Part shown: positions 2,825-18,262 of the stretch, in pieces | How positions within the stretch are numbered: the stretch's first letter is position 1 | How the letters are laid out: every line of letters begins with the position of its first letter | Origin: Candidatus Kuenenbacteria bacterium | Lineage (GTDB): Bacteria > Patescibacteriota > Patescibacteriia > UBA2196 > GWA2-42-15 | Direction of reading: 5' to 3' | Assembly: GCA_012798565.1 (NCBI GenBank) | Contig: JAAZMX010000036.1 | Coordinates: 1 to 40,309 of the forward strand | DNA: 40,309 nt | The notes under the pieces: generated by a model | What the model was told of the DNA's origin: nothing | Databases searched by the model: none | The model's input: only the letters and a program-made list of their open reading frames with translations | Program-made: the position numbers and the translations under genes

Positions 2825-3997
2825 TTATCTTGCTTTTAATTTTAATTTGGCCGACTCGGCATAATTCAAAATATCGGAGTCAAAATTCAAGATCAGCTTT
2901 CTCTTCACTTCATGGCGCTCTTCCGCCAGCCTAATCAGTTCGGCCAAAAGTTCTTTTAAACTTAGACCGCTCTTTTCCCACAAATGACTATAGAGCGTTC
3001 CGGGCAAGGTATTTATTTCATTGGCATAAAAACTACCATCATCTTTGTCATACAAAAAATCAAATCTGGCAATACCGCTGCAATCCAGGGCTTTAAAAAT
3101 TTTCACGCTCATTTCCTGTATTCCTTTAGTTGTCTTTTCGTCTAATCTGGCCGGTATAATTATATCTTTTTCCGCTCTACCAGTCTGTGCCCCTCCATCA
3201 TTCAAATATTTATCTTGATAGCTGAACAATTCATCTCGGAAAAGTGATTCTTGCAGCAAAGAGGCCCTGGGTTCATTATTGCCGATTACCGCACAAGTCA
3301 CATCCATCAAATTTTCCACGCATTTTTCTACCAATACTTTATCGTCATAATGCAAAGCGACCTCAATCGCCAATTCCAACTCTTTCTTCGTACGGACCTT
3401 GGCAATGCCGATTGACGAACCCAGTCTTGCCGGTTTGACGATCATTGGCCAGGTCAATTTATTTTCAATCAAAGCCACTGCTTTATCTGGTGACTCATCC
3501 CATCTTTGTTTGTCCAAGGGTACGAAATCTACTGCGGGAACACCCAGGCCCTGGAAAAAAATCTTGGTCAAAATCTTATCCATTGCCACAGCTGAACTTG
3601 CCACCCCGCAACCGACATAGGGTACATTCACTAATTCAAATACTCCCTGGACTGTCCCATCTTCGCCGTTTGTGCCATGCAGTGCCGGAAATGCCAAATC
3701 AATTTCAATCTTCCCGGGCATTATTCCGTCCCGGAAAAATACCATTTTATCCGTTGAAGCCTCCATATCCAGATGATAACTCTTCATCTGGCTCAATTTT
3801 TCTTCTTTATTCTTTTCTCGGAAAAACATCACCGAATCCAGTTGTTTGCCGATATACCAACGGCCATTTTTGCCAATATAAATTGGGATCGCTTCATGGC
3901 CCAAGTCGCGCAACCCGGAAATAATCATCTGCGCCGTAATAATAGACACGTCATGCTCTGGTGTCCGGCTCCCAAAAAAAATACCTATTTTTTTCAT
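2825..3997 (-). CDS. ddl: D-alanine--D-alanine ligase
   Basis: 390 aa. N-terminal GGxSxEHxVS-like motif (FGSRTPEHDVSI) and an ATP-grasp core (IVKPARLGSSIGI, EINTLPG). Confidence 0.9.
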   Translation of the reverse strand: MKKIGIFFGSRTPEHDVSIITAQMIISGLRDLGHEAIPIYIGKNGRWYIGKQLDSVMFFREKNKEEKLSQMKSYHLDMEASTDKMVFFRDGIMPGKIEIDLAFPALHGTNGEDGTVQGVFELVNVPYVGCGVASSAVAMDKILTKIFFQGLGVPAVDFVPLDKQRWDESPDKAVALIENKLTWPMIVKPARLGSSIGIAKVRTKKELELAIEVALHYDDKVLVEKCVENLMDVTCAVIGNNEPRASLLQESLFRDELFSYQDKYLNDGGAQTGRAEKDIIIPARLDEKTTKGIQEMSVKIFKALDCSGIARFDFLYDKDDGSFYANEINTLPGTLYSHLWEKSGLSLKELLAELIRLAEERHEVKRKLILNFDSDILNYAESAKLKLKAR

Positions 3998-9832: not shown

Positions 9833-10468
9833 TTAATTATTTACATGTTCCTCTGCTTCAGCCATAGCCGCTAACACAATGGCCACAAATTTCTCCTTCG
9901 GTATTCCGAGCTCACTCTCGCAAGTATAAATATTTTCCCTACTCACGGCTGCGGCAAAACGCGCTTCTTTAAATCTTTTCAAAACTGATTCTAATTTTAC
10001 TGAAGAAACTAATTTATCCGGCAAAATTTTTGATACAGCTACAATAAATCCAGTTAAACCATCAACCGCGAACAGTGCTTTGGCTAATCTGGAATCCCGC
10101 GGAATATTTTGCACTTCATTATGTGATTGAATCACGCGAATCAGATCATCAGGAAAATCAATCTCTTTTAAAAACTTTTCCGTCAGGGGTCCGCAATGTT
10201 CCTGCATGTGGGCCTCCATATTCTCCTTGCCAGTAATTTGTTCATAATCAATATCATGAAGTAAACCGCACATCGCCCAAGTGTGCTCATCCTCCCCGCC
10301 CTGTGCGGGTCCGCCTCGGGCGGAACGCCCATTAAAATATCTTGCCAATGCCCCCATCGCCGCTTCTGTATTCAACAAATGCAATCTACCTTCCGGCGAC
10401 ACGTATTTCTCCACCAACTGCCAGCATTTTTCTCTGGGGATTTGTAATTTTGATAAATTATTTTCCAT
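9833..10468 (-). CDS. HD-domain phosphohydrolase
   Basis: 211 aa. GLLHDIDYE HD motif. Contains an in-frame GC-rich hairpin insertion at 10290-10326. Confidence 0.7.
   Translation of the reverse strand: MENNLSKLQIPREKCWQLVEKYVSPEGRLHLLNTEAAMGALARYFNGRSARGGPAQGGEDEHTWAMCGLLHDIDYEQITGKENMEAHMQEHCGPLTEKFLKEIDFPDDLIRVIQSHNEVQNIPRDSRLAKALFAVDGLTGFIVAVSKILPDKLVSSVKLESVLKRFKEARFAAAVSRENIYTCESELGIPKEKFVAIVLAAMAEAEEHVNN
10290..10326. repeat. Twin GC-rich hairpin element in-frame within the HD-domain gene
   Basis: cccgc-cctgt-gcggg (10295-10309) and tccgcc-tcg-ggcgga (10310-10324). Shares atcctcccc with the rsmI copy. Confidence 0.65.
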
Positions 10469-16025: not shown

Positions 16026-16111
16026 GGGTCGGTACCAAAGCGGTCAACTGGGGCAGACTGTAAATCTGCTGGCATTCGCCTTCGTTGGTTCGAATCCAAC
16101 CCGGCCCACCA
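16026..16111 (+). tRNA. tRNA-Tyr (anticodon GTA), encoded CCA
   Basis: Acceptor stem gggtcgg/ccggccc, anticodon stem gcaga/tctgc with loop ctGTAaa, long variable arm, T-arm gttgg-ttcgaat-ccaac, discriminator A then CCA. Confidence 0.9.
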
Positions 16112-16161: not shown

Positions 16162-17159
16162 ATGAGTAAGACAAGTAGAACAAATAGAGAACGGCATGTG
16201 GCCCTAGAAGGGTATTTCATGTATCTCAAAGAAACAGCCAAGCTTGTTGATCCTTATGTATATACACATATTGAAAAACAGTTTGGGCAACTACCTTGGC
16301 TGAAGGGCCTAATTATCGACCGATATCGCTTCGGTCAACCACAGCTTAGACCAGCAACAGTACGTATGGCATATGAACTTGCTGGTGGTAAAGACTGGCA
16401 ACAGATTATACCCCTTTGCGCAGCGATGGAAGTCAAAGATACTGGGTATTATTGCTTCGATGAAATGCTTGATGTATCTGGTATTAGCGAATCTCTATTA
16501 ATGACTGGCTATTCTACCATAATATGGTATGGACAATGCTCAATGATCTCCCCTACCCTACAAAGTTGATTACTCAAGTTCGCCAAGCAATTCATGAGTT
16601 GGATCTCGATAACATGAATGGAATTAAAATTGAAACCGAGATGGCAAAAACCAAGTGCATGAATGAAGCGCTATATATGGAAAGGGTTAAGGGGTATAAC
16701 TTCTGGGAGCATGTGTTCCATGCAGGCGCCATCCTGGCACAAGCAAACGCCGAGATAATAGCACTAATCCAAAAAATAGGCCAATTTATAGGTATTGCAT
16801 ATATAATTGCGAGTGATACTTATGAATTTGGCAAAAATAATCTTGAGGATTTCCAATCTGGAAAAATTACCCTGCCTATCATTCATGCGCTTAAACAGAC
16901 GAATTCTGACGACATACAAACTCTCAAATCTTTGCATGGACGGAAGCTTACGACTGAGCTTCAAGAAAAAATTTGCCTAATTATGGTCAAGTGCGGGGCA
17001 ATCGACTATGGGAAGAGTGTAGCAAGAGAATGGTGCCAACAGGCCTTAAATCTTCTAAGGGAATTCAAAGATTCGCCAGTAAAAAATATCATCGAATTCT
17101 CCACCACGATAACACAACGCAACCGGTATTATACTAAACTTGAAACTTATCGAGAATAA
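16162..17159 (+). pseudogene. Polyprenyl (trans-isoprenyl) diphosphate synthase homolog, frameshifted, with degenerate Asp-rich motifs
   Basis: Two overlapping ORFs (16162-16569, 16524-17159), offset by -1. Blocks alignable to IspA: LRP..GG..AA.E, FARM position = FDEMLD, SARM position = SDTYE, GK.TLP, C-terminal ITQRN. AAGGAG SD 7 nt upstream of the ATG. Confidence 0.6.
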
Positions 17160-17309: not shown

Positions 17310-17594
17310 TTACCCCCAAAAAGCTTCTAAGAAAGCCTTAATTGAACTCTCTAAATTATTTGTATCATGAGGGAAACCCAACGAACCATAAACCTTGTTC
17401 GGGGGATTAATCCCAGCCCATACTAAGGCTCTAATATAAGCCTTGTAAAAAGCTTCAAAAGCATCCCCATCCGAGGCAACCGCTCTCCTCCGCACAGTCG
17501 TTTGCCCCACCCGAAGATAAACCACTACCGAAATTGAAAAAAGCCTGCCAGATACTCCATGATGGATAGTGTACTTTATTATCTTGCCTTTCAT
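17310..17594 (-). CDS. Small protein (94 aa), possible stand-alone LeuA/CimA-type regulatory (LeuA_dimer-like) domain
   Basis: Strong SD AAGGAGGA (17599-17606). By-eye match of YTIHHGVSG..SISVVVYLRVG..AVASDGDAFEAFYKA to the LeuA C-terminal pattern Y.VVSG..A.ASVKL..G..AA.GNGPVDA.YQA. Confidence 0.55.
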   Translation of the reverse strand: MKGKIIKYTIHHGVSGRLFSISVVVYLRVGQTTVRRRAVASDGDAFEAFYKAYIRALVWAGINPPNKVYGSLGFPHDTNNLESSIKAFLEAFWG

Positions 17595-17612
17595 GGCATC
17601 CTCCTTTTCGTT

Positions 17613-17705
17613 AAACCCAAAAGACCTTCCACTACTGTGGAAGGCCCGGTTATTTATGTTAACTATTTTTCTTTTTATCTTAAGTTAAACAAAAACCTTC
17701 CACAG
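17613..17705 (-). promoter_or_regulatory. Three-arm attenuator (antiterminator/terminator), Ile unit
   Basis: In minus-strand order: arm1 ctgtggaagg (17705-17696), arm2 ccttccacag (17644-17635), arm3 gtggaagg (17632-17625), then tcttttgggttt (17624-17613). Arm2 pairs with either arm1 (10 bp) or arm3 (8 bp). Confidence 0.7.
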
Positions 17706-17760
17706 TTAACTGGGAAATAATAATCGCAATAATAATGCTGTTTCTGTGAAAGTTTTGCAT
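17680..17760 (-). CDS. Ile-rich leader peptide MQNFHRNSIIIAIIISQLTVEGFCLT
   Basis: 26 codons. Six ATT Ile codons within seven positions. The ATG lies 9 nt after the predicted -10. The ORF runs through arm1 and stops 14 nt beyond it. Confidence 0.6.
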   Translation of the reverse strand: MQNFHRNSIIIAIIISQLTVEGFCLT

Positions 17761-17769
17761 AATGAATAT

Positions 17770-17797
17770 ATTCTACTATACCTAGTTTTTTTGTCAA
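17770..17797 (-). promoter_or_regulatory. Sigma70-like promoter of the Ile unit
   Basis: TTGACA (17797-17792), 16 nt, TAGAAT (17775-17770). Shares the 14-mer ttttttgtcaaata (plus strand) with the promoter at 18.19 kb. Confidence 0.6.
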
Positions 17798-17799
17798 AT

Positions 17800-17831
17800 A
17801 AAAAAGGCGTCCAGATTTTCTTAGAACGCCT
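17800..17831 (-). terminator. Rho-independent terminator after the zinc-ribbon ORF
   Basis: Stem aggcgt / acgcct (17805-17810 / 17826-17831), followed on the minus strand by a T-run. Confidence 0.65.
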
Positions 17832-17839
17832 TTCACTCT

Positions 17840-18007
17840 TTACTTCTCCGCTGCCCCTAATGTGATTCTTGCTCCGGTATGGTGAGCAAATTCAGATCGC
17901 AAGTTGGTGCCACAAGCAGAGCATCGGCCCTTGTCATTAATCACAGTTTCTTTTTGACAGTTGGGGCACTGCACCTTCTTGCCATTCTCATCTCTTGGCT
18001 CTTGCAT
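17840..18007 (-). CDS. Small zinc-ribbon protein (55 aa)
   Basis: MQEPRDENGKKVQCPNCQ..x11..CSACG (CxxC-x11-CxxC). ATG at 18007 preceded by GAGGGA at a 7-nt spacing. The ORF-track TTG at 18043 lies in the terminator U-tract. Confidence 0.6.
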   Translation of the reverse strand: MQEPRDENGKKVQCPNCQKETVINDKGRCSACGTNLRSEFAHHTGARITLGAAEK

Positions 18008-18034
18008 TGAATTTTCCCTCACTTTTTTAGTTTT

Positions 18035-18111
18035 AAAAACCAAAAACCTAGCCCTTGTTCGGCTAGATTCGTTAATTTTCTTTTTATTTTAAATATCAAA
18101 ATCTAGCCGAA
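18035..18111 (-). promoter_or_regulatory. Three-arm attenuator (antiterminator/terminator), Leu unit
   Basis: In minus-strand order: arm1 ttcggctaga (18111-18102), arm2 tctagccgaa (18067-18058), arm3 ggctag (18053-18048), then gtttttggttttt (18047-18035). Same architecture as 17613-17705 but with different stem sequences. Confidence 0.7.
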
Positions 18112-18162
18112 TTGTCTTAATCCGAGCAACAACAAAGCTAAATTTTGGCTGTTTCTTATCAT
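18103..18162 (-). CDS. Leu-rich leader peptide MIRNSQNLALLLLGLRQFG
   Basis: 19 codons. Six Leu in eight positions. The ATG begins 6 nt after the predicted -10, so the mRNA is essentially leaderless. The last codons TTC GGC TAG form arm1. Confidence 0.6.
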   Translation of the reverse strand: MIRNSQNLALLLLGLRQFG

Positions 18163-18168
18163 AAAACT

Positions 18169-18197
18169 ATTTTATTCTCTCCCCTATTTTTTGTCAA
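18169..18197 (-). promoter_or_regulatory. Sigma70-like promoter of the Leu unit
   Basis: TTGACA (18197-18192), 17 nt, TAAAAT (18174-18169). Confidence 0.6.
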
Positions 18198-18262
18198 ATA
18201 CCACCTCGCTCTTTATGTTTAAATGTTTATATGCTTAAATGCTTTTATGCTAAAATGTTTAT

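Follow-up and report, generated by a model that had tools for sequence, protein, structure and literature searches.

The stretch of DNA analyzed here (40,309 nucleotides (nt) of contig JAAZMX010000036.1 from the Candidatus Kuenenbacteria bacterium assembly GCA_012798565.1, hereafter called the window) carries on its minus strand two small genes, encoding a zinc-ribbon protein of 55 amino acids (aa) and a 94-aa protein, each of which is preceded by a compact leader unit (Table 1). The unit in front of the zinc-ribbon gene, here termed the Leu unit, contains a short open reading frame (sORF) with a run of leucine codons, and its neighbor, the Ile unit, contains a corresponding run of isoleucine codons. 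An earlier reading of the sequence, referred to in the following as the original prediction, had described the first of these as a leucine-codon leader peptide combined with a transcription attenuator and with an isoleucine-specific paralogue beside it. Upon re-reading of the minus strand, all of its coordinates and sequences were found to be correct, and its interpretation is supported by the anatomy and geometry of the unit, by the selection acting on it, by its coding signal and by an analogous leader found in a distant organism.

Table 1. Features of the two leader units and of the genes behind them (positions within the window).
Feature	Position	Strand	Sequence or remark
Leu unit	18197-18033	minus	promoter, 19-codon ORF, four mutually exclusive pairing regions, intrinsic terminator
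Leu-unit promoter	18169-18197	minus	-35 TTGACA 18197-18192; spacer 17 nt; -10 TAAAAT 18174-18169
Leu leader ORF	18103-18162	minus	MIRNSQNLALLLLGLRQFG, 19 codons plus TAG (18105-18103)
Regulatory codon run of Leu leader	18124-18141	minus	TTA GCT TTG TTG TTG CTC (L A L L L L)
Region 1	18136-18147	minus	CAAAATTTAGCT; just upstream of Leu run; pairs with region 2, anti-antiterminator
Region 2	18097-18111	minus	TTCGGCTAGATTTTG; contains last two codons and TAG; partner is region 1 or 3
Region 3	18058-18070	minus	GAATCTAGCCGAA; 3′ strand of antiterminator, 5′ strand of terminator
Region 4 and T-run	18033-18053	minus	region 4 18053-18044 GGCTAGGTT, then TTTGGTTTTT; with region 3 intrinsic terminator
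Zinc-ribbon gene	17840-18020	minus	Shine-Dalgarno GAGGG 18020-18016; 55-aa C4 zinc-ribbon ORF, ATG 18007, stop at 17840
Terminator-like hairpin and T-run of zinc-ribbon unit	17799-17829	minus	directly upstream of Ile promoter
Ile unit	17617-17797	minus	promoter 17797-17770; precedes 94-aa ORF
Ile leader ORF	17760-17680	minus	MQNFHRNSIIIAIIISQLTVEGFCLT, then stop
Ile-unit region 1	17753-17744	minus	
Ile-unit region 2	17706-17690	minus	
Ile-unit region 3	17649-17634	minus	
Ile-unit region 4	17632-17617	minus	
Ile-unit terminator	17647-17622	minus	
94-aa ORF, regulated by Ile unit	17310-17594	minus	own terminator 17292-17263

Anatomy of the Leu unit

The promoter hexamers and the spacer named in the original prediction match the consensus at 11 of 12 positions in promoter scoring, and the ATG of the leader ORF follows 6 nt downstream of the -10 element. 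No Shine-Dalgarno sequence was seen in front of this ATG when the upstream sequence was read. From the -10-to-ATG distance, which is conserved in relatives (see below), the ATG is predicted to lie approximately at the transcript start, which would make the mRNA (near-)leaderless. The encoded peptide has, as had been reported, six leucines within eight codons. The three arms originally described are likewise in place: arm1 (18111-18102) and arm2 (18067-18058) correspond to regions 2 and 3, respectively, and arm3 (ggctag) is followed by the T-run. Beyond these, a fourth region was found, since region 1 pairs with arm1, resulting in a full layout of alternative helices 1:2, 2:3, and 3:4. Folding of the individual segments gave -16.1 kcal/mol for helix 1:2, -17.1 kcal/mol for helix 2:3 (12 base pairs (bp)) and -13.2 kcal/mol for helix 3:4, so that the antiterminator is more stable than the terminator, the latter consisting of 10 pairs with a 7-nt loop (18070-18044).

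Counted from the ATG, region 1 covers nt 16-27 and the Leu run nt 22-39 (codons 10-13 at nt 28-39), and region 2 covers nt 52-66 with the stop codon at nt 58-60. The footprint of a ribosome extends approximately 12-15 nt 3′ of its A site. The geometry fits with this value, as a ribosome stalled on codons 10-13 would mask region 1 and leave region 2 free, and a ribosome at the stop codon would sit on region 2. Downstream, the T-run is separated from the zinc-ribbon ATG by 40 nt, which leaves no room for a promoter belonging to this ORF, and the Shine-Dalgarno sequence of the ORF lies outside the helices of the Leu unit. All structural features by which the leu, ilv, trp, and his attenuators are recognized, namely a sORF with cognate codons (here Leu), an intrinsic terminator, the three alternative helices and the corresponding geometry, are found in the Leu unit.

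Several comparisons against chance were made. The predicted RNA fold is more stable than that of shuffled sequences for the Leu unit (z = -5.25) as well as for the Ile unit (z = -3.43). The window contains 17 terminator-like hairpins, and just two of them, those of the Leu and the Ile unit, are preceded by a stretch of 7 nt or more that is complementary to the terminator's own 5′ arm. The same two units are also the only places in the window where a consensus promoter is followed by an ATG within 12 nt.

Kinship and conservation of the two units

The sequence elements that the two units had been said to share were both recovered. The promoter 14-mer TATTTGACAAAAAA has two exact copies in the window (18187-18200 and 17787-17800), and exact occurrences of the 12-mer ATAAAAAGAAAA from the spacer are confined to the Leu and Ile units. 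Since an alignment of the two units reaches z = 7.5 over dinucleotide-preserving shuffles, they are considered paralogues, in which the Leu run of one corresponds to six Ile codons (IIIAIII) in the other. The original prediction had further held that the stems of the units are completely different in sequence while remaining complementary within each unit, and had called them fully covarying. With the units in register, all 12 pairs of helix 2:3 are indeed kept in both, and five to six of them have changed on both sides; however, four of the 12 pairs are identical, so that full covariation was an overstatement. Helix 3:4 shows five double changes between the Leu and the Ile unit in register. 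This compensatory pattern is real and had to be coordinated across regions 1 to 4. Judged by its sequence, the Ile unit follows the same attenuation logic as the Leu unit.

The original prediction had made its reading dependent on orthologues that retain the layout of peptide plus arms. This layout is preserved for both units, at the same place, in four Patescibacteria lineages (the window, L001, L005/L010, and L009/L016/L027), which were gathered from the contigs carrying relatives of the 94-aa protein, from a synteny search based on the divergent dus gene, and from a DNA-pattern scan of metagenome contigs. Nucleotide identity among these lineages amounts to 80-89% for the Leu units and 87-91% for the Ile units. 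The corresponding value is 50-68% for the zinc-ribbon ORFs and 59% for the 94/95-aa ORFs of the window and L009. For the adjacent dus gene, the coding sequence is approximately 76% identical between distant pairs, and its four-fold degenerate sites, used as a proxy for neutral change, reach 50-53% identity in the three pairs that are more distant. Since the leaders (80-91%) thus exceed both the neutral level (about 50%) and the ORFs behind them (50-68%), they are under strong purifying selection, which exceeds the selection on the genes they precede.

L001, L005, and L009 keep the promoter hexamers, the spacer length between them and the 6 nt from the -10 element to the ATG. The orthologous Leu leaders (MTRNSQKLALLLLELKQFG, MNIINQNLALLLLELKQFG, and MNRIDQNLSLLLLEYKQFG) all have 19 codons without insertions or deletions. 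Leu8 and Leu10-13 are invariant in the four lineages, codon 9 specifies Ala in three of them and Ser in L009 (LSLLLL), and codons 2-5 vary freely with the frame remaining constant. Codons 13, 15, and 18 have changed synonymously (CTC/CTT, TTA/TTG, and TTC/TTT). The Ile leader of L009 shows four synonymous changes (AGA/AGG, AAC/AAT, CCA/CCG, and TTA/TTG); every lineage has the same Ile codons in the run, and the residue in their center is either Ala or Ser (IIISIII in L009). Across five sequences, 90% of the cells are paired for region 1 with region 2, 98% for helix 2:3 and 100% for helix 3:4.

With regard to further copies, about 50 kilobases (kb) of the organism's own genome (the window and 10 kb more of contig, L022) and approximately 175 kb of other loci (relatives and a few unrelated leuA-bearing contigs) were scanned, and further units may therefore exist. 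A scan for terminators combined with antiterminators in the window, L022, L009-L016, L023-L024, and L027-L029 revealed no additional paralogues with other amino-acid runs. The covariance search that the original prediction had proposed was performed with a model of the Leu family over 215 kb; it yielded nothing new, with the Ile units reaching just 18-21 bits. MAFFT misaligns region 3 between the paralogues, which precluded a combined model of the Leu and Ile units. Marginal matches of the Leu-family model in L012 and L013 were rejected, the former being an ordinary terminator region and the latter showing no layout of leader ORF and attenuator on reading. A scan of viral contigs with the Ile-arm pattern matched unrelated GC-rich repeats, which implies that patterns consisting of arms alone can match by chance.

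Relatives with a Dus protein approximately 52% identical (L011-L013) have no unit beside dus. L012 (Dus approximately 53% identical) carries two promoters of the TTGACAAAA type, at 10268-10360 on the plus strand and at 8350-8280 on the minus strand, which are followed within a few nt by mini-ORFs encoding MLIIIL and MMIKL, respectively, and each of these ends approximately 15-35 nt upstream of a small ORF led by a Shine-Dalgarno sequence. No terminator or alternative hairpins were found at these two sites, and the mini-ORFs could be due to chance or represent a different, translational kind of leader. The surroundings of the units vary between lineages as well. An extra gene for a small membrane protein (80-104 aa) with its own promoter lies between dus and the Leu unit in L005 (1836-2078), L009 (approximately 5904-5590, minus strand) and L016 (2806-3120), and is absent from the window and L001. 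Between the zinc-ribbon terminator and the Ile promoter, where the window has a 38-nt spacer, insertions of 120-260 nt with long perfect hairpins such as gtctactttctttttagaaaagaaagtagac are present in L001 (approximately 2690-2790), L005 (approximately 2545-2790) and L009 (approximately 5170-4935, minus strand). These insertions had no match in an Rfam scan and look like miniature inverted-repeat transposable elements or a structured RNA.

The genes behind the units and an analogous leader in front of leuA

In a library of 5.8 billion proteins the zinc-ribbon ORF has no homologue but itself, and the family search produced generic zinc-ribbon matches only, all of them below the cut-off. Its AlphaFold2 model (predicted local distance difference test score (pLDDT) 85) resembles generic zinc fingers only, with no specific structural neighbor, and neither PADLOC nor PHROGs gave a meaningful match to a defense or phage family. 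The counterparts in L001, L005, and L009 keep the CxxC...CxxC pattern and otherwise diverge, the one in L005 being essentially unrelated to the others. The terminator-like hairpin behind the gene was missed by the terminator scan because of its 11-nt loop, and a better-paired version of it is kept in L001, L005, and L009.

The 94-aa protein encoded behind the Ile unit has three other family members only in libraries of 5.8 billion and 1.84 billion proteins. Its sole Pfam match is LeuA_dimer (PF08502), which is aligned to the second repeat with E = 0.05 and 14 bits compared to a cut-off of 24.9. The AlphaFold2 model (pLDDT 85.5) has a beta-beta-beta-alpha fold followed by a C-terminal helix, and its top matches in Foldseek are the regulatory domains of LeuA from Mycobacterium tuberculosis and of the isoleucine-bound citramalate synthase (CMS) from Leptospira (probability about 1, E 0.02-0.1, template modeling score about 0.5). 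Comparison with the C-terminus of the LeuA protein described below (locus L024) using hhalign gave E = 0.002 at a probability of 14%, and a sequence-profile search of the PDB found no LeuA. A resemblance to one repeat of the allosteric, Leu/Ile-binding domain of LeuA and citramalate synthase is suggestive, not established, and we are only slightly inclined to accept it on these profile and model comparisons. Residues 44-59 and 77-92 of the protein, both helical, contain the motifs D-A-F-E-A-F-Y-K-A-Y-I-R-A-L and N-L-E-S-S-I-K-A-F-L-E-A-F, which are similar to each other and to the TDIIEASVKAYLDAL helix in the regulatory domain of LeuA from L024, a possible sign of a partly degenerate repeat within the protein. 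A ChW-repeat match of the protein P0005 was rejected as spurious.

Immediately behind the 94-aa gene of L005 lies a remnant of the C-terminal approximately 38 residues of a P0004-type variant (3276-3497, 3304/3520; about 85% identical), which is followed on its 3′ side by a second copy of the same terminator module and suggests replacement of an allele or cassette behind a conserved leader. Between the 94-aa gene and tRNA-Tyr (16026-16111) the window contains, on the plus strand, a polyprenyl synthetase split into overlapping ORFs of 135 aa (16162-16569) and 211 aa (16524-17159), of which only the second is matched by PF00348. The split is probably due to a frameshift or marks a pseudogene, and no such gene was seen at this position in L001, L005, and L009.

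A scan of metagenome contigs with a pattern of three fixed arms and a T-run returned the known clade and L024 (Ga0155991_148) as the single outsider. The arrangement found there recurs in an independent assembly (L028; ERZ4903072 k141_2417498). The promoter in L024 (TTGACT-16-TATAGT) is located 11 nt upstream of the ATG of a 20-codon leader (MMSHKHNAVVILSLLLLKRG, then stop) that contains LSLLLL and ends with an in-frame GGC TAG within the same arm as in the window. Its arms are identical to those of the window (GGCTAG / CTAGCC / GGCTAGG and T-run), the 1:2 / 3:4 layout is that of the Leu unit, the fold reaches z = -5.6, and one compensatory change from A-U to G-C lengthens helix 2:3. Behind this leader lie an orphan ORF of 74 aa and leuA, the gene for a full-length isopropylmalate synthase that has HMGL-like, HCS_D2, and LeuA_dimer domains. 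The same design therefore exists where a leucine attenuator would be expected. This leuA (L024 5601-7241, corresponding to L028 6001-7641) is a lone gene in DUF4012/MreB/uridine-kinase-like surroundings and is followed by a terminator and a holB-like gene.

The host of L024 is distant, as its DUF4012 protein is 27% identical to the one of the window. Identity of its LeuA to the LeuA proteins of ordinary bacteria with large genomes, for example Latescibacteria and Gemmatimonadetes, is 70-73%, which suggests that leuA was acquired horizontally. The closest relatives of this LeuA (P0007-P0009) are encoded in ordinary GC-rich ilv-leu operons, for which no such leader was seen, in P0007 by reading of the upstream sequence and in P0008 and P0009 from the gene tables only. 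Common descent of the L024 and window units is plausible from the shared frame, stop codon, length of the sORF and the compensatory extension of helix 2:3, and is unproven.

Proposed mechanism, alternatives and comparison with known systems

Taken together, we consider it very likely that the Leu unit works by ribosome-mediated transcription attenuation, with a leader peptide through which the level of charged tRNA-Leu is read. The anatomy, the helix energies, the conservation and the coding signature follow directly from the sequences, and from these we infer where the transcript starts, that the sORF is translated, that ribosomes stall in it in response to leucine supply, and what roles the two small proteins play. 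In this model, the strong sigma-70-type promoter would start the transcript at or within a few nt of the AUG of the 19-codon ORF, and a ribosome is therefore proposed to load as soon as the 5′ end emerges. With ample Leu-tRNA it would reach the TAG in region 2, which would thereby be masked, helix 3:4 would form and the polymerase would terminate at the T-run. Termination would likewise be expected if no translation takes place at all, as regions 1 and 2 would then pair and helix 3:4 could form. When Leu-tRNA is scarce, the ribosome would stall on codons 10-13 (UUG UUG UUG CUC), covering region 1 and ending approximately at the start of region 2, and the free region 2 would form the stabler 12-bp helix with region 3, so that no terminator arises and transcription would read through into the zinc-ribbon gene. 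The six-codon Ile run of the paralogue would act alike for the 94-aa gene.

Several observations weigh against this interpretation. The Leu run is built mostly of TTG, the commonest Leu codon (50%), and not of rare codons, although CTC (4%) is rare. The zinc ribbon is an orphan, and neither regulated gene is known to be connected with leucine. Covariation among the Leu orthologues is not significant, with one compensatory pair that was matched or exceeded in 179 of 500 shuffles, and the covariation argument therefore rests on the comparison of the Leu and Ile paralogues, the stems being nearly invariant among the orthologues. Conservation of the AT-rich loop that separates region 2 from region 3 exceeds the strict needs of the model, and extension of helix 2:3 explains this only partly. 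Outside the fixed arms, the similarity of the L024 element to the window unit is not significant (z about 0), and the element may be a convergent Leu attenuator instead of a homologue. Genes that serve to make, transport or charge the cognate amino acid, which are usual though not strictly defining targets of this class of attenuators, are seen behind the L024 leader only, the zinc-ribbon ORF having no family assignment.

The conserved loop bears on a first alternative, according to which the unit mainly encodes a trans-acting product, namely an abundant terminated RNA of approximately 125 nt and/or the 19-aa peptide, with read-through into the zinc-ribbon gene being secondary. The near-consensus promoter would be in line with this, as would the fact that the whole unit, 2-3 loop included, is conserved far more than neutral sites and more than the ORF behind it, and the Sinorhizobium trp attenuator RNA rnTrpL and its peptide peTrpL provide a precedent for such functions in trans (PMC7298713, PMC7968998). 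However, positions 2-5 of the peptide vary freely, unlike what is expected of a functional peptide, no target is known, and the zinc-ribbon ORF is equipped with a Shine-Dalgarno sequence and a terminator, lacks a separate promoter and keeps its cysteines in all lineages, which argues that read-through matters. A trans-acting product would moreover be compatible with attenuation in cis, and as the main function of the unit we regard it as clearly unlikely. A type I toxin as the product was rejected, since the hydrophobic stretch of the peptide comprises just 6-8 residues and positions 2-5 are unconstrained.

The predominance of common codons in the run would fit with a second alternative, in which the unit senses the state of translation without specificity for leucine, responding to a hydrophobic nascent peptide or to any slowing of translation by antibiotics, general starvation or cold, similar to erm- or cat-type or general stress-responsive leaders. 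For the architecture it would be enough if the ribosome stalled before the last third of the sORF, and the regulated genes are not involved in Leu or Ile biosynthesis. On the other hand, the neighboring paralogues keep different pure runs (LALLLL/LSLLLL versus IIIAIII/IIISIII), whose Leu and Ile codons are invariant whereas other positions drift, L024 has a leader of this design, likewise rich in Leu, in front of leuA, and the leader of the Leu unit contains no known arrest motif. This alternative therefore appears even less probable than a trans-acting product. That the leaders are functionless relics of leu and ilv operons lost from a reduced genome, with incidental small ORFs behind them, might be suggested by the general lack of amino-acid biosynthesis in Patescibacteria, by the likeness of the 94-aa protein to a fragment of a LeuA-type regulatory domain and by the leader-leuA arrangement in L024, but is very improbable and already largely refuted, because decay is incompatible with units that are 80-91% identical compared to approximately 50% at neutral sites, that have promoter, frame, runs, and all four arms intact in every lineage and whose downstream ORFs keep their start, Shine-Dalgarno sequence, fold-defining residues and terminators.

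Returning to attenuation by charged tRNA-Leu and tRNA-Ile, our best guess is that the two small proteins are effectors of a response to branched-chain-amino-acid starvation in an organism that probably has to import its amino acids; as a rule, amino-acid biosynthesis is lacking in Patescibacteria. In a wider scenario, which we consider doubtful, both units would form a starvation regulon peculiar to this clade of Patescibacteria, whose members, presumed to be branched-chain auxotrophs, would sense the supply from their surroundings or host by ribosome stalling and induce fast-evolving micro-proteins. The 94-aa protein might then be a descendant, now free-standing, of the Leu/Ile-binding regulatory domain of isopropylmalate/citramalate synthase, which survived the loss of the enzyme behind its original attenuator and serves as a ligand-sensing effector, and the strongly conserved, terminated leader RNAs might act in trans too. 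If the units work as proposed, ultra-small and probably auxotrophic bacteria would monitor the charging of tRNA-Leu and tRNA-Ile directly and couple it to non-biosynthetic genes, which would offer a way into the nutrient-supply sensing of such organisms. The units also point to two otherwise invisible micro-proteins, the zinc ribbon and the LeuA-regulatory-domain-like protein, as candidate starvation effectors. Since conservation is much higher in the units than in the genes under their control, a search with structure descriptors or covariance models across genomes of the Candidate Phyla Radiation (CPR) could define the regulon.

With regard to known RNA families, a scan of the window at Rfam gathering thresholds identified tRNA-Tyr only and no leader, riboswitch or T-box family, so that none of T-box (RF00230), Leu_leader (RF00512), and Phe_leader (RF01859) was present at this threshold. 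In a permissive scan of 17550-18260, only noise was obtained; the best leader was Phe_leader on the Ile unit (19.4 bits compared to a threshold of 55, E = 1.4), and no T-box was matched. Rfam scans of L024 and L009 likewise contained no leader, riboswitch or T-box family, and no description of leader-peptide attenuation in Patescibacteria/CPR was found in the searched literature.

The classical amino-acid attenuators of Escherichia coli and Salmonella (leu, ilvGMEDA, ilvBN, trp, his, and thr) share with the units described here the sORF with cognate codons, the mutually exclusive helices 1:2, 2:3, and 3:4, the intrinsic terminator before the first structural gene and a stop codon placed such that a ribosome that does not stall masks region 2. 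Further attenuators concerned with branched-chain amino acids are the Leu-rich ilv attenuator of Staphylococcus aureus (PMC5794164) and the ilvBNC attenuator of Corynebacterium (PMC11857589). The units of the window differ from the classical ones in their host, which belongs to the Patescibacteria, in a sORF that lacks a Shine-Dalgarno sequence and is predicted to start at approximately +1, and in their targets, which are monocistronic micro-ORFs and not biosynthetic enzymes. The mechanism itself is textbook; unusual are the patescibacterial host, the predicted (near-)leaderless start and the targets, and the units match no Rfam family.

Leaders controlling transcription of genes outside amino-acid biosynthesis by a translation-dependent choice between alternative stem-loops are also known from Salmonella mgtCBR and mgtA, where long leaders with Shine-Dalgarno-led ORFs respond through Pro and other codons and the targets are a virulence factor and Mg2+ transport (PMC3641672); they have no sequence relation to the units described here. 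The polycysteine sORFs of mycobacteria are leaderless, as predicted here, have a run of a single amino acid and occur as several independent units with a common dependence on amino-acid supply, an arrangement discussed as a "ribulon". There, stalling of the ribosome frees the ribosome-binding site further downstream from a sequestering structure, by which cysteine metabolism is controlled (Canestrari et al., bioRxiv 10.1101/834739). These sORFs thus act on translation, whereas here an intrinsic terminator and its T-run would form the output and the targets lie outside metabolism. The leuA leader of L024/L028 has the arms, the GGC TAG end, a comparable Leu run (LSLLLL) and a very short 5′ leader in common with the Leu unit and differs from it in its target, a 74-aa ORF together with leuA.

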